From NCBI GenBank assembly GCA_050331235.1, contig JBHJHA010000040.1:1-16846 (forward strand): 16,846 nucleotides of DNA. Direction: 5' to 3'. Numbering within the stretch: position 1 is the first letter of the stretch; every line of letters begins with the position of its first letter. Positions 2 through 16,846 of the stretch are shown piece by piece. The translations under genes and the position numbers were made by a program. Source of the stretch: Leptolyngbyaceae cyanobacterium (lineage in GTDB: Bacteria; Cyanobacteriota; Cyanobacteriia; Phormidesmidales; Phormidesmidaceae). The notes below the pieces were generated by a model. It was not told where the DNA came from. It searched no databases and was given only the letters and a program-made list of their open reading frames with translations.

Positions 2-151
2 GTGATTGACGGCAACCTGCACAACTTGGGGACCGTGGGGAGCGATCGCATTGCTCGTGACGGTAGCGTTTGGACCTTTGAGGACGCCCATGATAACGAC
101 TTCAATGACGTTATCTTGACCCTCAACTCCGCTGAAGCGGCGGTTGCATAA
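2..151 (+). CDS. 3' end (partial) of an upstream gene with a DUF4114-like C-terminal domain, paralogous to the C-terminus of 651..3914
   Basis: Frame from position 2 reads VIDGNLHNLGTVGSDRIARDGSVWTFEDAHDNDFNDVILTLNSAEAAVA* (TAA 149-151). It is 36/49 identical to the last 49 aa of the 651..3914 protein and has the FED-x2-DNDFND motif typical of DUF4114. Not in the ORF track because it is truncated. Confidence 0.9.
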   Translation: MIDGNLHNLGTVGSDRIARDGSVWTFEDAHDNDFNDVILTLNSAEAAVA

Positions 152-186
152 ACCGACATTGAGCTAACTTGCTCCATAATCCCCAA

Positions 187-219
187 CCCCCGTCTTTCGA
201 GGCGGGGGATTCTTGTTTT
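187..219 (+). terminator. Intrinsic terminator of the upstream partial gene
   Basis: Stem-loop CCCCCGTCT-TTCG-AGGCGGGGG (187-208) followed by ATTCTTGTTTT, 35 nt after the stop codon. Confidence 0.75.
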
Positions 220-451
220 CTAGCTCCCGTGCCTCTCGGCCTTGATCTCGCCGGCCATTGTTGCCAGCGCTCACACTTGGTGAACTTCATTACGCTGCTG
301 TTACTTAAATTCACGGTTTGTTGGCGGGCAGATGGTTAAACCAGCCCAACCCGCAGCGATCGCCCTCACTCCGCACAAATCTCTTCAGATCGACTGAGAC
401 CCCCTGCCCTGGCTGAAGACTAGCGATCGTCCTCCCAGCAATTGAGCAACT

Positions 452-492
452 ATCAAAGGAAAATTAAAGTCGCCATAAACTGCTCTTGAATT
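452..492 (+). promoter_or_regulatory. Candidate Pho box (SphR/PhoB-type direct repeats) upstream of the EEP-PhoD gene
   Basis: Octamers at exact 11-bp period: ATCAAAGG (452), ATTAAAGT (463), CATAAACT (474), CTTGAATT (485). They are degenerate matches to cyanobacterial PyTTAAPyPy(T/A) repeats spaced by 3 bp. TATATT/TATTCT -10-like hexamers lie at 499-506, and the downstream gene is a phosphatase. Confidence 0.4.
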
Positions 493-650
493 GCCAGGTA
501 TATTCTCATCCATGCCGTGATTGATCACGGGATACCTCAGCAAAAATACGGATTCATCATCAACTTCAGCGGATTGTTAGCGCTGCTAACTCAGATTTTG
601 ACGCCGCCCGTTTTTGCCCACCTCTGCAAAGTCCCTACCCCCAAAAGCCG

Positions 651-3600
651 ATGCCTATTCGTTTTGCTAGCTACAATGCCTCGCTCAACCGCTCCGCCGC
701 TGGGCAGTTGATTACCGATTTATCGACCCCCAATGATCCCCAGGCCCAATCGGTGGCTGAAATCATTCAGCGCACGAGCCCGGATGTTCTACTAATTAAT
801 GAGTTTGATTATGACGCCGCTGGGGAAGCTGCCGAGCTCTTTCAAACCAACTATCTCGCGGTCTCGCAAAACGGCGTTGACCCGGCTGAATACCCCTACG
901 TTTATGTCGCGCCTTCTAACACCGGGGTAGCCTCCGGACTTGATTTTGATAACAACGGCAGCGTTGGTGGGCCGGGAGATGCGTTTGGCTTTGGCTTCTT
1001 TCCTGGGCAGTTTGGCTTCGCCATTTTTTCCAAATATCCCATCGCTGAAGATGAGATTCGGACGTTCCAAGAGTTTTTGTGGGCTGATATGCCCGGTGCA
1101 CTGTTGCCGCCCGACCCGCTAGATACCGATGGCAACGGGGACACGGCTAACTGGTTCACTTCAGAAGAACTGGCCGCATATCGCTTATCTTCTAAAAATC
1201 ACGTCGATGTGCCTATCGAAGTGGATGGCGACATTATCCATCTGCTAGCGAGCCATCCTACCCCGCCCGTCTTTGACGGTCCCGAAGACTTAAATGGCCG
1301 CCGCAACTTTGACGAAATTCGGTTCTGGTCGGATTACATCAACGGTGCGGATTACATCTACGACGATGACGGCAATTTTGGTGGCCTGGAGGCAGGGTCG
1401 CAATTTGTGATTGCCGGTGACCAAAACTCAGATCCGTTTGATGGTGATAGTCGGCCCGGAGCAGCCCAGCAGCTCCTCGAAAATCCCCTGGTGAATACGA
1501 CAGTGACGCCCAGCAGCGAGGGTGGAGTTGATGCGGCGATTCGTCAGGCGGGTGCTAATGTTACCCACACGGGCAACCCAGCCTTTGATACCGCTGACTT
1601 TGGCTTTAATGCTGATGATCCCAGCAGCGATAACCCACCGGGTAATCTGCGGGTAGATTATGTATTGCCCTCTGAAAATTTGGCGATCGCCGACGCCCAG
1701 GTTTTTTGGCAAGCTAGTGACGATCCGCTATTCCCCTTAGCAGAATTTCCCACCTCCGACCACCGGCTAGTCTACGTCGATGTCGAAACTGCTGGCGACG
1801 CAGATACTTTGCCGAATGGAGTCGCTAGCGGTGATGTCACCCAAGACTCCGTAGTCCTCTGGACTCGCAGCACCGCCATTGGTGACGTCACATTTGAATA
1901 TTCCACCCGCGCCGATTTCAGCACGATCGCAGGCTCCGTCGTGGCTACCGTTACGGATGACACCCTACCGGTTAAAGTCGAGGTGGATGGTTTGACCGCC
2001 GGCACCGACTACTACTATCGTGTCACGGATGCCGCCGGCAACACAAAAGCAGGAGAGTTTGAAACCGCTGCCGCCATTGGGGAGTATGCCGGTTTGCGAT
2101 TTGGGGTGGCGGGTGACTGGCGCGGTGAACTAGCGCCCTATCCGGCGATCAAGAATGCTGATGAACTAGAGCTAGACTTTTTTGTCGAGCACGGCGACAC
2201 CATTTACGCCGATTTCCCCTCACCGGCGCTGCCTGAGCCACAGGCAGAATCCTTAGCAGACTTTCGAATCAAGCATTCAGAGGTCTACAGCGATCGCTTT
2301 GGCAGCAACACCTGGGCTGATTTGCGTGCCTCCGCTGCAATTTATGCCACTATCGACGACCACGAAGTGATTAACGACTTTTCGGGCGGCGAGCCGATTG
2401 GTAATGATCAGCGCTTACTCGATATCTTCCCCAGCGACGACCCCAATGCCCTGGTCAATGACAGCACACTATTTGAAAACGGCCTTCAGGCATTCCAAGA
2501 ATACAATCCTCTGCGCGATGAATTTTATGGGGAAACAGGGGACGAGCGCACCGCCAATGAACGGAAGCTCTACCGCTCTGATACCTTTGGCGCCGATGCC
2601 GCGACCTTTATCTTAGATACGCGGTCCTTCCGCGATCAGCCGCTGGTTGGCCCTGATACTACTGATCCAGCCGATATTGGACGCTTTCTGACTGAGTCAC
2701 TCGTCCTGGATCGGCAATTTTTAGGAGAGCCTCAACTAGCGGACCTCAAAGCCGATCTCTTGGCCGCAGAGGCTAACGACGTCACCTGGAAGTTTGTCAT
2801 GGTGCCGGAACCGATTCAGGAACTGGGGATCTACAACGTCGATGCGTTTGAAGGCTATGCCAATGAGCGCAACGAGATTCTCCAATTTGTTGAAGCCAAC
2901 GATATTGACAACGTCGTATTTGTCGCTGCCGATATCCACGGCACTTTTGTCAATAATTTGACCTATACCGAAACAGTTGGCGGTCCTCGAATTGCTACCG
3001 ATGTTTGGGAAATTACCACCGGTTCAGTGGCCTTTGATGCGCCCTTTGGTCAAACAGTGGTCGATGTCGCAACGGCAGCAGGCTTGCTATCCGCTGAGGA
3101 GCGTGCCTTCTATGAGACGCTTCCCATTGCTCCCGATCTCGACGACATTCCCAATGACAAGGATGATTTCCTTGAGCAGGCCTTCCAAACTCTGACGATT
3201 GGACCGGGTGGCTATGATCCCATCGGCTTGGACAACAATCTCACCGCCGAACAGGGCTTACAAGGGTCCTTTGAGGTTGAAGCGACGTTGTTACAGGGTG
3301 ACTATGTGGCAGCCCATACCTACGGTTGGACACAGTTCGACATTGATCCGAATTCTCAGGTGTTGACGGTTACAACCTATGGAATTGAGCCGTACAGTGA
3401 AGCCGATCTCTTGGCAGACCCTGAGAGCGTCGTGAACTCGACTCCGTTCATTGTGAGCCAGTTTGAAGTTGTCCCGACTTTGGAGGAAAGGCCTGCGGCC
3501 CTTGAGACGCTGGTCGACCTAACGGGCATTGATGGCGACGTCACTGTCAATGTCACCCTCGATCGCGAAGCCGTTTTCAACAACACCGTGCGGTTCTACG

Positions 3601-3914
3601 AAACTGATGCTGACGGTAGCATTGACGGTCTCATGGTGGGCGATGCCGGCTACGAAGACGCGGTCTTGAACAACCTGCTCGATGTGGAATTGAGCGTTGA
3701 CAACTTAGTCACCAGCGAGGTCGAGTTTACCTTTGAGGGGGGCACTTACTATGCGCCGGTGCTTGTCATTAACGGCAACTCCAACAACTTGGGCACTATC
3801 GGCAGCGATCGCATCGCCCGCGATGGCAACGTCTGGACGTTTGAAGACGCCGCTGATAATGACTTTAACGACATCGTGATTACCCTTAACTCAGTTGAGA
3901 GTGCGACTGTGTAG
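651..3914 (+). CDS. phoD: Multidomain phosphate-scavenging enzyme: endonuclease/exonuclease/phosphatase (EEP) domain + PhoD-type alkaline phosphatase + C-terminal DUF4114-like domain
   Basis: EEP motifs: FASYN, PDVLLINEFD, SHPTPP, AGDQNSD, LRVDYVLP, SDHRLV. PhoD N-terminal domain: GVASGDVTQDSVVLWTR and GLTAGTDYYYR. PhoD catalytic motifs: HGDTIYAD, IDDHE, LDTRSFR, FEGY, ADIH. C-terminal FEDAADNDFND. Very acidic composition. Confidence 0.9.
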   Translation: MPIRFASYNASLNRSAAGQLITDLSTPNDPQAQSVAEIIQRTSPDVLLINEFDYDAAGEAAELFQTNYLAVSQNGVDPAEYPYVYVAPSNTGVASGLDFDNNGSVGGPGDAFGFGFFPGQFGFAIFSKYPIAEDEIRTFQEFLWADMPGALLPPDPLDTDGNGDTANWFTSEELAAYRLSSKNHVDVPIEVDGDIIHLLASHPTPPVFDGPEDLNGRRNFDEIRFWSDYINGADYIYDDDGNFGGLEAGSQFVIAGDQNSDPFDGDSRPGAAQQLLENPLVNTTVTPSSEGGVDAAIRQAGANVTHTGNPAFDTADFGFNADDPSSDNPPGNLRVDYVLPSENLAIADAQVFWQASDDPLFPLAEFPTSDHRLVYVDVETAGDADTLPNGVASGDVTQDSVVLWTRSTAIGDVTFEYSTRADFSTIAGSVVATVTDDTLPVKVEVDGLTAGTDYYYRVTDAAGNTKAGEFETAAAIGEYAGLRFGVAGDWRGELAPYPAIKNADELELDFFVEHGDTIYADFPSPALPEPQAESLADFRIKHSEVYSDRFGSNTWADLRASAAIYATIDDHEVINDFSGGEPIGNDQRLLDIFPSDDPNALVNDSTLFENGLQAFQEYNPLRDEFYGETGDERTANERKLYRSDTFGADAATFILDTRSFRDQPLVGPDTTDPADIGRFLTESLVLDRQFLGEPQLADLKADLLAAEANDVTWKFVMVPEPIQELGIYNVDAFEGYANERNEILQFVEANDIDNVVFVAADIHGTFVNNLTYTETVGGPRIATDVWEITTGSVAFDAPFGQTVVDVATAAGLLSAEERAFYETLPIAPDLDDIPNDKDDFLEQAFQTLTIGPGGYDPIGLDNNLTAEQGLQGSFEVEATLLQGDYVAAHTYGWTQFDIDPNSQVLTVTTYGIEPYSEADLLADPESVVNSTPFIVSQFEVVPTLEERPAALETLVDLTGIDGDVTVNVTLDREAVFNNTVRFYETDADGSIDGLMVGDAGYEDAVLNNLLDVELSVDNLVTSEVEFTFEGGTYYAPVLVINGNSNNLGTIGSDRIARDGNVWTFEDAADNDFNDIVITLNSVESATV

Positions 3915-3936
3915 TTAACGTTGCCATATCTCACTT

Positions 3937-11182: not shown

Positions 11183-12337
11183 ATGAGTGAATACAGCATT
11201 TTTACTTCGGAATCGGTGTCGGCAGGTCATCCTGACAAAATGGCCGACCAAATATCGGATGCCATCATAGACGACATCCTCAAAGACGACGCTCATGCCC
11301 GGGTGGCAGTCGAAACGTTGGTCAAGACCGGCATGGCCGTCATTGCTGGAGAGGTCCGTACCAGCACCTATGTCGATTTAGTAGACGTAGTTCGCTGTGT
11401 CATCTTTGACATTGGCTACGATAGCTCCGATGTGGGCTTTGATGGAGCTTCCTGCGCTGTGTTGAATGCCATTGGCAAACAGTCTTCTGACATTGCCATG
11501 GGCGTCGACGAAGCTGAAGCCAAAGACCTTGGCGCTGGCGACCAAGGCCTCATGTTTGGCTACGCGACGAACGAGACGGATGTGCTCATGCCGGCTCCTA
11601 TTTACTTTGCCCATCGCCTGGTTGAGCGCCAAGCGGAGCTGCGAAAAAATAAAACTCTGCCCTGGTTACGTCCCGATGCCAAGAGCCAGGTGACCCTACG
11701 CTACGAAAACGGTAAGCCCGTTGCCGTTGATGCCGTGGTGCTGTCAACCCAGCATGAACCAGACGTGACTTTGGCTGAGATTCGCGAAGCCGTGATGGAA
11801 GAAATCATCAAGCCGGTCTTGCCTCAGGCGTGGTTCCACGTGGAGACCCAGTATCACATCAATCCAACGGGACAATTCATCATCGGCGGTCCGGTGGGCG
11901 ACTGCGGTCTGACCGGACGCAAAATCATTGTCGACACTTACGGCGGCATGGCCCGACACGGAGGGGGCGCTTTTTCGGGTAAGGATCCCTCCAAGGTCGA
12001 TCGCTCGGCAGCTTATGCGGGGCGCTATGTCGCAAAAAACATCGTGGCGGCCGGTTTGGCCGATCGCTGTGAGATTCAGGTTTCTTACGCCATTGGGGTT
12101 TCTGAACCGACATCGATTTCGATCAATACCTTTGGCACGGGCAAGCTCTCCGACGAGGAGATTTCGAAGCTGGTTCGAGACAACTTTGATCTGCGTCCGC
12201 AAGGATTAATCGATATGCTGGATCTACGTCGTCCGATTTATCGACAAACGGCAGCATTTGGCCATTTTGGCCGGGAACTGCCCGATATGACGTGGGAAAA
12301 GACCGATAAGGCGGCTGCCTTGAAAGCCGCTCTGTAA
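11183..12337 (+). CDS. metK: S-adenosylmethionine synthetase (methionine adenosyltransferase)
   Basis: Motifs [66 protein letters not shown] and FGHFGR. Confidence 0.98.
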
Positions 12338-12388
12338 TCATCGCTAATATCACTCACTGACTGCAATTTACTCAACCTAAAGGAATCA

Positions 12389-13774
12389 ATGACTGCACAA
12401 GTTCTGAAGCAAGATTACAAAGTTGCCGATATTTCTCTAGCCGACTGGGGCCGCAAGGAAATCGCGATCGCCGAGAGCGAAATGCCGGCGCTGATCAAAA
12501 TTCGCGAAAAGTATCGCGCTAGCCAGCCCCTCAAGGGAGCCAAAATCATTGGCTGCATCCACATGACCATTCAAACGGCGGTATTGATTGAGACGCTGCA
12601 AGCGCTGGGTGCTGAGGTGCGGTGGTCTTCCTGCAACATTTTTTCCACTCAGGATCACGCCGCGGCGGCGATCGCAGCAGCAGGCACCCCCGTCTTTGCT
12701 TGGAAGGGCGAAACCGAAGAAGAATACATGTGGTGCATTGAGCAGACCTGCCGTACCCCCGAGGGCGACCTATGGGATGCCAACATGATTTTGGATGACG
12801 GTGGCGACTTGACTGGCCACATCCACGAACACTACCCCGAGATGCTCGACCACATCCACGGCGTCACCGAGGAGACCACCACCGGCGTTCACCGCCTGCT
12901 GGAGATGATGGAGCACGGTGAACTGAAGGTGCCTGCCATCAACGTGAATGACTCTGTCACCAAGGCGAAAAACGACAACAAGTACGGCTGCCGCCACAGT
13001 CTGAACGATGCTATCAAGCGGGCGATCGACCACCTTCTCGCCGGTAAAAAAGCCTTGGTCATCGGCTATGGCGATGTTGGTAAGGGCTCTGCGGCGTCCC
13101 TCCGTCAAGAAGGCATGATCGTCAAGGTGGCGGAATGTGACCCCATCTGTGCCATGCAGGCCTGCATGGACGGTTTTGAGGTGGTTTCTCCTTACATTGG
13201 CGGTCAGAATGACGGCACTGAGAGCTGCATTGACCGCGACCTGCTCGGCAACACCGATCTGCTGGTGACGGCCACTGGTAACGTCAACGTCTGCGATGCC
13301 TACATGCTGGCGGCTCTGAAGCGGGGCGCTGTGGTCTGCAACATCGGCCACTTTGATAATGAAATCGACACGGCTTACATGCGCCGCACCTGGCGCTGGG
13401 AAGAGGTGAAGCCCCAAGTCCATCAGGTCTACCGCAGTGATGACCAAGATGATTTCTTGTTGCTGTTGGCTGAGGGCCGCTTGGTGAACCTGGGTAACGC
13501 CACCGGTCACCCCTCTCGCATTATGGACGGCTCTTTTGCGAACCAAGTGCTGGCGCAAATGTTCTTGTACGAGCGTAAGTTTGCAGACAAGTCTCCCGAA
13601 GAAAAGTCCACTGCCATCACCGTTGAGGTGCTGCCTAAGCACCTAGATGAGGAAGTTGCCCGCTACATGGTAGAGGGCTTTGGTGGCGTGGTCACTCAGC
13701 TCACCGAAAAGCAGGCCAAGTACATCAACGTGCCCATGAACGGTCCGTTCAAGACCGACAGCTACAAATACTAA
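12389..13774 (+). CDS. ahcY: S-adenosyl-L-homocysteine hydrolase (adenosylhomocysteinase)
   Basis: Motifs [54 protein letters not shown] (NAD binding), NIGHFD and [20 protein letters not shown] upstream; 51 bp after metK, so probably one operon. Confidence 0.98.
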
Positions 13775-13832: not shown

Positions 13833-13875
13833 CAAAGGAGAGTTCTGGCTAGTGCTCAGGGCTCTCCTTTGTTTT
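13833..13875 (+). terminator. Intrinsic terminator after ahcY
   Basis: CAAAGGAGAGTTCTG (13833-13847) pairs with CAGGGCTCTCCTTTG (13857-13871, two G-U pairs), followed by TTTT. Confidence 0.8.
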
Positions 13876-13951
13876 GGACGAGCGACCGCTTCCAGCTCTC
13901 GGATCCTTCTACAGCCGACTTAGAATAAGCAAAAGCCACAGAGCGATCGCC

Positions 13952-14584
13952 ATGGTGCTCCTGAACGAGTTAGCCAGCCGAATCACCCTAGATGATCCTG
14001 AAGAACGACGGGTCTTGAGCCGTGTCTCGTGGGCACAGTACGAAGCATTGCTGGCCGATTTGGGAGACACCGGTGCTTATCGGGTGCATTTTTTAGATGG
14101 AGTTTTAGAGATCTTGGCCCCGAGTCGCCATCATGAAGTCGGCAAGACCCTGATTGGTAATCTTCTGGAACTCTATTTTCTAGAAACCGACACCGAATAT
14201 TTCCCGATGGGCTCCACCACACTAAAGAAGTCTGAACAACAGGCGGGCGGTGAACCAGATGAAAGCTACTGCATCGGGACAAACAAAGAATTTCCTGATT
14301 TGGCCATTGAAGTTATCGTTACCAGCGGCAGTATCAATCGGCTGGAGCTGTACCGACGACTCGGTGTGCGTGAAGTTTGGTTTTGGCAAAAGCATCGACT
14401 GTCGCTTTATCACCAGCGAGCAGATCACCCGGCCGAGTTTGCTGAGACTGCAGGCTATGAGCTGATTCAGCACAGCGAGGTATTGCCCGATCTCGATCTA
14501 GCGCTATTGACTCGCTGCCTACAAATGCCAAATCCGTTAGCTGCCGTGAAAGCGTTTCGACAGGGACTGCGCAAGGGGGCTTGA
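13952..14584 (+). CDS. Uma2 family (DUF820) PD-(D/E)XK endonuclease-like protein
   Basis: Pattern VSWAQYEALL, DGVLEILAPS..HE, GSTT, EPDESY, PDLAIEVIVTSGS, Y.RLGVREVWFW. The track's start (13874) lies in the terminator tail; ATG 13952 follows a TAGAAT -10-like hexamer at 13921. Confidence 0.92.
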   Translation: MVLLNELASRITLDDPEERRVLSRVSWAQYEALLADLGDTGAYRVHFLDGVLEILAPSRHHEVGKTLIGNLLELYFLETDTEYFPMGSTTLKKSEQQAGGEPDESYCIGTNKEFPDLAIEVIVTSGSINRLELYRRLGVREVWFWQKHRLSLYHQRADHPAEFAETAGYELIQHSEVLPDLDLALLTRCLQMPNPLAAVKAFRQGLRKGA

Positions 14585-14708: not shown

Positions 14709-14972
14709 ATGCTCAAAACCACTCGCTATTTTGACAATTTTGCCTCGCAAAAACACCCTGAAGTAGAGCGAGCATGGATTGAAAAGGTTTTGGCAAATCC
14801 GATTAAGACAGAGTCGCAGCCTAACCAGCGAATTTCCCATTGGGGCAACATTGAAGCAGCAGAAAACCGGGTTTTGCGAGTGATCACACTAGAGGATGGC
14901 GAAACGGTTCATGATGCTTTCTTCGATCGCAACTTTTATAAACGTCAGCAGCGAGGTGAGGAACCCCAATGA
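14709..14972 (+). CDS. Putative type II toxin (DUF4258-like, predicted RelE/BrnT-type RNase fold)
   Basis: 87 aa with pattern WIEKVLANP...Q...R..HWG.I....NRVLRVITLEDGETVH.AFFDR, typical of partners encoded upstream of DUF2283 genes. ATGA overlap with the next gene. Confidence 0.7.
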   Translation: MLKTTRYFDNFASQKHPEVERAWIEKVLANPIKTESQPNQRISHWGNIEAAENRVLRVITLEDGETVHDAFFDRNFYKRQQRGEEPQ

Positions 14973-15175
14973 AGATTCAATATTTTGCGGATACCGATAC
15001 CTTAGCGATCGAGCTGACGACACAGGCTGTTGCCGCTACGGATGCAATTACCGATGATTTGATTTTGGACTACGACAGCAATGGCAAAGTCGTTGCCATT
15101 ACGTTGGACAACTATTCTAAAAATGTCGAAACAGTTGATTTGCAAGCATTGGGAGTACCGGTTTTGGCGGCGTAA
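14969..15175 (+). CDS. DUF2283 domain protein, putative antitoxin
   Basis: MKIQYFADTDTLAIEL...LILDYDSNGKVVAITL matches the DUF2283 pattern (Y...D.LYI.L...DYD..G.VVGI). Small, acidic and translationally coupled to the upstream gene. Confidence 0.85.
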   Translation: MKIQYFADTDTLAIELTTQAVAATDAITDDLILDYDSNGKVVAITLDNYSKNVETVDLQALGVPVLAA

Positions 15176-15278
15176 CGCTTGCCAGCTCGCCCCAATGCCC
15201 GATGGCTTGCGGAAAGGCCGTACCTGCCGCTGGAGCATTACAGTATGCTGTGACCATATTTACGCTGCTGATTACTGA

Positions 15279-16846
15279 ATGAATTGCCCCTGGTTGTGGT
15301 TGCTAGCCCAACCCTCTACAGGAAATCCGCCCCAGTCAAAGGCTGAGCAGCTTTTGGAGTGGTTTAACAGCAACCCTCTGGTGGGGTGGGGAATGGCAAT
15401 TTTTGCAGTGGTGGCAGTGGCTGTCGCTGCCGTTGCTAAGTTGACGGGCAATCTCGATAACATCATTGGCTTTGTTGGCAAGTACCGCCCCAAAAAGCGG
15501 GAGCTTACCGAAGCTGATCGAGATCGCCTGCGGCGAGACCTCATCGACGTGGTGCTGGGGCAAGTGGTAAAGCGCCTAGAAGACTCTTTACATCACAAAA
15601 TTCGGTTGGATTTGAAGCGCCAAGAAGAACGTCAGCGGGTCGGGCGACGCGACTGGTCACCGTCCGCTCAAACACTTGATAGTGACGCGGCGTTACAGCG
15701 ACGCTATCAGTTTCAAACTGCTGAGCGACTCAGCCTAATTCGCACGCTCAATAGGCTACCGTCAGCCATGTTTGACGAATTGATGTTTACGCTTGACCCG
15801 CCTCAAGGTCAGGTGCCAGGGAGTTCGGCAGCTCAAGGCGATCGCAGCCGGGCGCTGCTGGCATGGGTGGAAAGTGCTGAGGGGCCGGGACTGGAAAAGT
15901 TCTGTGAGGTGCTGGAGCTGGTGGGTATCCCTTTACCGGAAATGGCAGCAAATGCGGTTGAGGAGCAGGCGCTGACCAACGCATCGACCCATGACTTACT
16001 CAGGCGCGACGACATCAACGGCAGACTGCTGATCCTGGGGGAACCGGGGACGGGCAAAACGAATGAGCTGCTAGCCCTGGCGAAAACGCTGTTGCAACAG
16101 GCTAAAGCGTCAGCCGATGCGCCTATTCCAGTCATCTTTGAACTGTCGGAATGGTCTAGCGAGCCTGATAAAACCTTTGCCGATTGGCTGTGTGAACAGC
16201 TTCAGGAAAAATACACCGTGCCGCTGGCCGTGGCGAACCATTGGATGGAGCACAATCGACTCTGGCCCTTGCTGGATGGTCTGGATGAACTGCGTCGGGT
16301 AGATGAGTCTGAGACTGCTACTGATGAAGAGCTGGACCGCCAGCGGCAGGCGAAACAGATTCAGTGTATGCGGAGCATTAACGCGTTTCTCGACCTGCAT
16401 CCGGCCACGTCAGCGGTGGTCTGTTGCCGACGCCAGGAATACGAAGCTTTAGAAGCGCGGGGCGAATATCTGAAGCGCTTGAATGGTGCTATCACTTTGC
16501 AAGCGCTGGACGACGAGCAAATCTGCACGTACTTTGAAAACTCGAATCGGGGACCGCTGTGGGACACGCTGAAAAATCAACCGGAGCTTTTGGCACTGGC
16601 CCGCTCGCCGCTGTTTTTGCTGATGCTGGTGGTGGCCTATCAGGGGCAACCGATTCACAATCCAAATAAATTGCTCGATCTTTACATAGATATTCAACTG
16701 AATGACCAGAACAATCGAGGCGCTTACCCACCTGACAAAGCTCCGTCTCAAGAGCAGACCGAACACTATCTCGCGTGGCTAGCCACCAAACTTGAACAGC
16801 AGGAATTAACTGAATTTCTGATTGAGCGATTGCAGCCTAGCTGGCT
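15279..16846 (+). CDS. NACHT (STAND) NTPase, 5' part; N-terminal TM helix and Death-like/EAD-like helical domain; runs off the window
   Basis: Manual translation from ATG 15279 (in-frame TGA directly upstream) is open for 522 codons. Walker A LLILGEPGTGKT (16038-16061), IPVIFELSEW, Walker B LLDGLDE (16269-16289), VVCCRRQEY, LARSPLFLLML, YLAWLA and FLIERLQPSW are all typical of cyanobacterial NACHT proteins. Absent from the ORF track because there is no stop in the window. Confidence 0.92.
   Translation, partial: MNCPWLWLLAQPSTGNPPQSKAEQLLEWFNSNPLVGWGMAIFAVVAVAVAAVAKLTGNLDNIIGFVGKYRPKKRELTEADRDRLRRDLIDVVLGQVVKRLEDSLHHKIRLDLKRQEERQRVGRRDWSPSAQTLDSDAALQRRYQFQTAERLSLIRTLNRLPSAMFDELMFTLDPPQGQVPGSSAAQGDRSRALLAWVESAEGPGLEKFCEVLELVGIPLPEMAANAVEEQALTNASTHDLLRRDDINGRLLILGEPGTGKTNELLALAKTLLQQAKASADAPIPVIFELSEWSSEPDKTFADWLCEQLQEKYTVPLAVANHWMEHNRLWPLLDGLDELRRVDESETATDEELDRQRQAKQIQCMRSINAFLDLHPATSAVVCCRRQEYEALEARGEYLKRLNGAITLQALDDEQICTYFENSNRGPLWDTLKNQPELLALARSPLFLLMLVVAYQGQPIHNPNKLLDLYIDIQLNDQNNRGAYPPDKAPSQEQTEHYLAWLATKLEQQELTEFLIERLQPSW

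Follow-up and report, generated by a model that had tools for sequence, protein, structure and literature searches.

The window analysed here, 16,846 nucleotides in length, is the complete contig C40 of a draft cyanobacterial genome (G000; 4.8 Mb in 118 contigs, 95.5% complete). It ends within a gene for a NACHT NTPase that carries an additional block of residues shortly before the P-loop. The gene raises the questions of what this block is, whether it was inserted into a conserved protein, and what such a domain might do in this position.

The NACHT gene at the contig end

The gene has the following features, numbered as in the window.

15279 to 16844, forward strand: NACHT NTPase gene, 522 codons, frame open to the contig end
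15378 to 15434, forward strand: predicted lone N-terminal membrane helix (aa 34-52, Kyte-Doolittle 2.49)
15516 to 15701, forward strand: conserved pre-NACHT segment RDRLRRDL...LEDSLHHKIRLDL...VGR, common to homologs without the insertion
15705 to 15932, forward strand: inserted domain, predicted Death-like adaptor of an uncatalogued family (aa ~143-218; profile match 15705-15926)
15933 to 15998, forward strand: linker returning to the host protein, of low confidence in the model and changing faster than the domain
16038 to 16061, forward strand: Walker A, GEPGTGKT (aa 254-261), read from the sequence
16269 to 16289, forward strand: Walker B, LLDGLDE (aa 331-337), read from the sequence

The Pfam NACHT model matched residues 250-386 above its cut-off (E 3.4e-8; 33.9 bits vs 26.7). 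The same scan of ORF 15279-16844 had no match on the inserted block; NCBIfam and PADLOC gave weak P-loop matches only, with nothing on the block and no strong PADLOC match. A second hydrophobic peak at residues 436-454 falls within the helical part of NACHT. Full-length homologs of about 660-790 aa supplied the C-terminal sensor that the first-pass annotation had sought downstream: a membrane region of several helices, after which the protein ends in a winged helix. These membrane helices lie outside the window and were seen in P0002 (84% identical) and P0152; the sensor of the homologs is a membrane bundle rich in glycine and leucine rather than a receptor built of repeats.

A contig from a public sequencing run covers 15241-16692 with 3 letters different; the run may be the source sample and is not independent. 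At position 16050 the window has A and all three contigs of run X1 have G; with G, the variable residue 258 of Walker A reads Ala, the residue of most homologs, where the window encodes Thr. This may be a strain difference or an assembly variant. Runs X2 and X3 contained small shares of the stretch only, and no RNA run is listed for it.

Directly upstream of the NACHT gene, at 14709-15175, are two small overlapping genes with a weak DUF4258 match (E 0.034) and a DUF2283 match, respectively; they look like a toxin-antitoxin pair, and many variant copies of this region are found in the same metagenome. The pair is preceded by a Uma2 gene (13874-14584). Adjoining genes for SAM synthetase and S-adenosylhomocysteine hydrolase at 11183-13774 are each the sole match in the genome at E<=1e-10, and we take them to be more proteobacterial than cyanobacterial in appearance. 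An Rfam scan of the window gave no match, including no riboswitch at the SAM genes. The segment 1-186 (minus strand) resembles 3749-3934 (minus strand), the end of a phosphatase gene at 651-3914 with PhoD and exonuclease-endonuclease-phosphatase domains, which suggests a tandem phosphatase paralog upstream of the contig start.

An in-frame insertion before the P-loop

From the sequence alone, the block had been described as 67 residues set between a conserved segment and the P-loop of a membrane-anchored NACHT protein. Translating 15723-15923 reproduces these 67 residues exactly, as residues 149-215 of the ORF, and the flanks are as claimed, with the N-terminal hydrophobic helix and the LEDSLHHKIRLDL segment on one side and Walker A and NACHT on the other. 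The position of the block held, and its limits were widened slightly, to about residues 143-218, by the profile match.

The block is a true in-frame insertion, present in some homologs and absent from others. A short linker had been proposed as the normal condition of the subfamily, and the spacing between the SLH segment and Walker A bears this out: among the 108 homologs that could be scored within the best 120 of 362, it is 62-102 residues (median 81) in 103, as against 154-160 in the 5 internal carriers. When 41 related genomes were compared, G012 matched along the entire ORF, block included, whereas G013, G007 and G006 aligned at 70-83% over residues 1-143 and 234-522 in one open frame that skips the block. 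The insertion site, here called site A, is common to the window, G012, P0002, P0153 and P0157; misassembly is unlikely because the same insertion occurs in these four further records. In P0154 the domain lies about 25 host residues further on, directly before the strand leading to the P-loop (site B). Only G000 and G012, among 151 genomes of the cyanobacterial family, have a full-length match spanning both junctions. No clean junction or target repeat was seen by eye in the DNA alignment.

Predicted fold of the inserted domain

The domain model (~75 aa, pLDDT 90.2) has four helices by DSSP and no strands, with a proline-rich loop of 13 residues between helices two and three; the classical Death fold is a six-helix bundle. 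In a structural alignment against 48,161 chains, the top match was 3mop_K (Z 8.5, rmsd 2.7 Å, 80 aligned). Death-fold proteins (Death, DED, CARD or PYD) make up 46 of the 50 listed rows, at Z 5.5-8.5, their status being taken from the title or from the nature of the aligned domain; the remaining four are two CENP-N chains, a designed protein and an unnamed entry. A Z of 8.5 is below the value of about 13 that the aligner's note requires for helical bundles and is thus modest, so that it is the consistency of the list which argues for a Death fold. The model had no Foldseek match at E<=0.001, and in the weak Foldseek list PYD and DD chains were frequent, with PYD rows at TM 0.55-0.57. The check by structure model and Foldseek suggested earlier gave a confident model and, through the structural alignment, a list of Death-fold proteins, with nothing from Foldseek itself at that threshold. 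Overall, the model agrees with the Death-like fold first proposed for the block, and we predict such a fold for the domain.

In the full-length model of P0002 (pLDDT 84.3), the insert stands apart between linkers of pLDDT <50, and the NACHT core and membrane helices are intact. The insert is thus predicted to be an independent domain on two flexible linkers. The same model matches NLRP, NOD2 and NLRC4 chains. A complex prediction with four domain copies (score 0.12, mark 0.42) was uninformative either way.

Relation to the EAD and bDLD families

The first-pass annotation had likened the block to the effector-associated (EAD) and bacterial Death-like (bDLD) adaptors. Of 24 members of the domain family, none matched the Pfam models for EAD1, 2 and 4-11 at E<=5; the models for EAD1, 2, 4, 7, 9 and 10 do match other proteins. 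There was likewise no match to bDLD1 (PF20689) or bDLD3 (PF20690) in the 24 members. In five genomes carrying 1-17 domain copies, bDLD1 had no match at E<=1, with a match in the positive control G508; bDLD3 likewise matched none of five genomes. A profile comparison with EAD1 (8 sequences) gave P 9.9e-5, against 0.48 for the reversed control; the comparison with bDLD1, from two sequences and weak by itself, gave P 0.62. An adaptor of the EAD/bDLD kind was thus upheld, and membership in Pfam EAD1, 2, 4-11, bDLD1 or bDLD3 was not. On these sequence comparisons, the domain is best read as a separate adaptor family near EAD1.

Two identities were considered and dropped. bDLD1 came into question on account of the copy N-terminal to iSTAND, and was rejected on the HMM results with the G508 control, together with the two-sequence profile comparison. 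EAD7 was proposed by the Atlas (0.85, and 0.93 on a cluster with EAD7 in 25% of its members), and was supported neither by Pfam nor by profile comparison with four EAD7 sequences (P 0.07).

Distribution and fusions of the domain family

The block is a member of a large mobile adaptor family, with the consensus RLxLxxTLNxLPxxQFxELxFALNPPxGxxPxxxAxQGxRxxALLxWxExPxGPGLxxLxxxL. A search with a 24-sequence profile found 1021 cluster representatives (50% identity) at E<=0.001, and 637 at 1e-10. Within the cyanobacterial family of the window, 64 of 151 genomes carry it, with 323 matches (median 4, maximum 17); it is single-copy in 19 of these carriers and present in 2-17 copies in the other 45. Only 7 of 301 genomes drawn from the phylum have the domain. 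Named carriers are Adonisia, Nodosilinea, Halomicronema and Leptolyngbya, together with plasmids of Gloeothece and Calothrix, and one domain record is labelled Acidobacteriota. In an adaptor of the EAD class, copies in adjacent genes would be expected to resemble each other more than others do; here the difference is slight, with a pairwise identity of 42.6% within a locus (17 pairs) vs 39.9% between loci (389 pairs), and one co-oriented pair reaches 61%.

By position, the copies in 149 representatives divide into 91 at the N-terminus, 30 at the C-terminus, 35 internal ones, often in tandem arrays, and 10 that form a protein by themselves. Partners were identified by a Pfam scan of 128 of the 150 listed representatives, many of which had no Pfam match at all. 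They include TIR, CHAT, trypsin, kinase, TRADD-N with pentapeptide repeats, and VMAP (domain N-terminal in P0095 and P0104), and further NACHT, NB-ARC with TPR, nSTAND1, GUN4, EAD1, EAD2 and EAD9. The loci added Roc-COR, PNPase with SEFIR, a hydrolase, FGE-sulfatase and a thiamine-diphosphate enzyme; a PsbP-like protein is a further partner. The domain is fused directly N-terminal to iSTAND in one of 55 loci (L168). By coordinates, a copy also precedes iSTAND on its strand, by no more than about 1 kb, in G005, G009, G016, G356, G376, G391, G397 and G448. The domain gene of G016 lies upstream of an operon of EAD9-iSTAND, MoxR, vWA and SAVED. Occurrence of the block in other domain contexts, as anticipated by the first reading, is thus seen across the family in TIR, trypsin, kinase, CHAT and STAND fusions.

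Tandem arrays of four to seven domain copies occur in P0003, P0004, P0006 and P0053, some behind a segment resembling the vWA linker of ternary systems. A 20 kb locus of G011 (L059) has four domain copies, and a gene at 2-2218 (minus strand) joins the domain and TRADD-N to a thiamine-diphosphate enzyme, which is a surprising partner. In G016, the domain gene that precedes EAD9-iSTAND (L062, 5440-7000) is apparently frameshifted in its second half and is followed by two EAD9-like coiled segments in other frames. By eye, the iSTAND N-termini in the 55 loci L120-L174 are mostly EAD9-like coils, trypsin, TIR, caspase or CHAT, and several are HTH-like segments.

Candidate partners in G000 and its relatives

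A search of the genome for other proteins bearing the block had been suggested; in the G000 draft, tblastn, a profile search and an HMM built from 222 sequences all found no second copy. No partner having been found there, homotypic recruitment in this strain is something that we infer. None of the 5 TIR matches in G000 carries the domain, and the Pfam EAD/bDLD models tested on this genome had no match. Such proteins are present in relatives. The nearest carrier, G012, has four copies besides the insert: TIR+domain, domain+TIR+NB-ARC+TPR, domain+nSTAND1 and domain+FGE-sulfatase. TIR fusions of the domain were found in G012, G009 and G011.

History of the insert

In a quick tree of 79 columns, the domains of the five site A carriers group on a single branch (SH-aLRT 99). 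In the tree of the NACHT core, four site A carriers (P0157, too short, was dropped) do not form a clade (AU p 0.0029), and P0153 falls outside a starred group that contains three insert-free proteins. The cassette has therefore been exchanged between alleles or lost more than once; exchange and repeated loss fit the data on the insert alike. A common origin of the domains at sites A and B is not rejected (AU p 0.65), so that the case for two insertions is that the sites differ. Compared with G012, silent and replacement codon changes number 17:13 in the insert (75 codons), 64:47 in the NACHT core (282) and 6:10 in the linker (24). In this one pair, by counts only, the balance of silent and replacement changes in the insert is close to that in the NACHT core, and that in the linker is different. 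The genes flanking the NACHT gene are unlike in G000, G012, G013, G007 and G006, and the gene therefore moves.

Topology and a proposed mechanism

The basic stretch KYRPKKR (aa 68-74) lies C-terminal of the membrane helix. By the positive-inside rule, a basic stretch after a membrane helix marks the inside, which suggests that the N-terminus is outside and NACHT inside. The domain is present in 14 of the best 120 homologs, internally in 5 and at the N-terminus in 9. Among the 87 homologs that could be classed (33 of the 120 could not), 65 have the helix without the domain, 9 have the domain replacing the helix, 5 have both and 8 neither; an arrangement with the domain ahead of the helix does not occur among them. 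The helix is thus kept in 5 of 5 internal carriers and 0 of 9 N-terminal carriers, and these carriers are related, not independent. A retained helix would place the N-terminus across the membrane, and a cytoplasmic adaptor would therefore have to enter the loop. The internal position of the domain is likely to be forced by topology. This pattern of replacement vs insertion suggests a simple topological rule by which membrane-bound NLRs gain adaptors.

The reading we favour, and regard as reasonably probable, is that the block is a mobile Death-like adaptor in the pre-P-loop segment of NACHT and serves as a docking plug recruiting immune effectors with the same domain. By analogy with other STAND ATPases and with EADs, the membrane bundle would sense a change linked to infection; the NACHT module would exchange nucleotide and form a ring; the ring would cluster the inserted domains; and these would recruit TIR, CHAT/caspase, trypsin or hydrolase proteins bearing the same domain, which may then kill or arrest the infected cell. 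A more far-reaching version is possible, at somewhat less than an even chance. It holds that an undescribed Death-fold family is the main immune adaptor of this lineage and was grafted at least twice into the loop of a doubly membrane-anchored NLR, with a cassette that recombines between alleles and switchably links membrane sensors to a shared pool of TIR and protease proteins. It would amount to a bacterial analogue of the inflammasome or Myddosome, bound to the membrane and using a Death fold of four helices.

The block might instead be a real Death-like adaptor orphaned in a strain without effector partners, where it aids ring assembly or is a passenger. This is suggested by the single copy in a 95.5% complete genome, in which no paralog of the NACHT family was found either, by the mobility of the gene seen from its differing neighbours in the five genomes, and by close homologs that are intact genes without the insert. 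We think it unlikely, since the one pair compared shows no faster change in the insert than in the NACHT core, two of the four further copies in the sister carrier G012 are on TIR proteins, and the downstream neighbours are out of sight because the gene lies at the contig end. Plant NLRs carry integrated domains that act as decoys, and the insert could in the same manner bind phage proteins that target Death-like adaptors and so switch NACHT on. Such a decoy would fit a non-canonical domain that entered a receptor at two sites, has a patchy distribution in the host tree (AU p 0.003) and stands without a partner in G000. It is nevertheless very improbable: one query found no phage copy in IMG/VR contigs, 50,697 phage records or PHROGs (0 of 61 members), there is no sign of fast change in the insert, and the family lies mostly at the termini of effectors and cores, as adaptors do.

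The signal, too, could be unrelated to infection; examples are membrane stress, programmed cell death as filaments develop, and self/non-self contact of filaments. The sensor is a membrane bundle rather than a repeat receptor, some fusions are with GUN4, PsbP-like and thiamine-diphosphate proteins, and the portions of the literature covered held no experiment on this NACHT subfamily. Most identified fusions, however, are with TIR, proteases, STAND ATPases and parts of ternary systems, and bacterial NACHT proteins are phage-protective according to the Kibby preprint (10.1101/2022.07.19.500537). We consider a non-infection signal improbable, and retain recruitment of effectors upon infection as the preferred reading.

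Comparison with known systems

The conflict systems built on EADs and bDLDs were described by Kaur et al. in 2020 (PMC7159879) and 2021 (PMC8195603). Like EAD1-11 and bDLD1-3, the present domain is small, helical, non-enzymatic and multi-copy per genome, and like EADs it is fused both to cores (VMAP, iSTAND, STAND ATPases) and to effectors (TIR, protease, kinase). It is grouped with EADs because this pattern of fusions and neighbours is the one that defines them (PMC7159879), where homotypic binding between EAD copies is a proposal. Its likeness to EAD1 (P 9.9e-5) is of the size listed between separate EAD families (PMC8195603, Supplementary file 1). Unlike EADs and bDLDs, it matches none of 12 Pfam models, carries motifs of its own (LNPPxGxxP and W-E-x-x-x-G-P-G-L) and is concentrated in a single cyanobacterial family. 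The contexts described for bDLD2 (with trypsin and STAND in NucA systems) and for bDLD6 (between SH3 and OB folds, 2026 preprint) differ from those seen here. The literature covered has no description of the domain, and a search of the supplements of the 2021 paper for its motifs and accessions found no entry for these proteins, so that the family may be undescribed. Internal EADs are known, 39 of 442 EAD and bDLD positions being given as 'middle' in a table of PMC8195603. Unlike EADs, the present domain is neither terminal nor between domains, lying inside the conserved pre-P-loop segment of NACHT, a site for which the literature covered gave no EAD or bDLD insertion. We conclude that this is an uncatalogued family of a known adaptor kind in an unusual position.

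NACHT proteins with 'TM regions' appear in the same preprint of Kibby et al., and the label NACHT+68TM-wHTH in the source data of PMC8195603; the architecture of the window protein suggests that this label covers its subfamily. The window protein shares the NACHT core with these bacterial membrane NACHTs and, judged from its full-length homologs, the several membrane helices and winged-helix end that follow; cyanobacterial expansions are common to both. In the Kibby NACHTs, effectors are mostly at the extreme N-terminus, whereas the window protein keeps an N-terminal membrane helix and has its adaptor internally.

Bacterial Death-like adaptors have been proposed as a link between animal cell-death signalling and bacterial immunity, with binding largely at the stage of proposal in the sources seen. 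Natural gene pairs, such as TIR+domain adjoining domain+TRADD-N, make the present family easy to test, and closely related alleles that have or lack the insert offer a natural test of what an NLR gains from an adaptor. The profile would also annotate more than 1000 clusters now called hypothetical. As in the animal NLRs that carry PYD or CARD (NLRP3, NLRC4, NOD2), a predicted Death-fold domain stands upstream of NACHT, and the domain model aligns to DD, DED, CARD and PYD chains; Death-fold assemblies such as MyD88-IRAK4-IRAK2 are likewise among the closest known systems. The identity to the listed structural matches is 5-23%, and common ancestry with the animal domains is not implied. Unlike the animal NLRs, the bacterial protein has a membrane sensor in place of leucine-rich repeats and a domain of four predicted helices.
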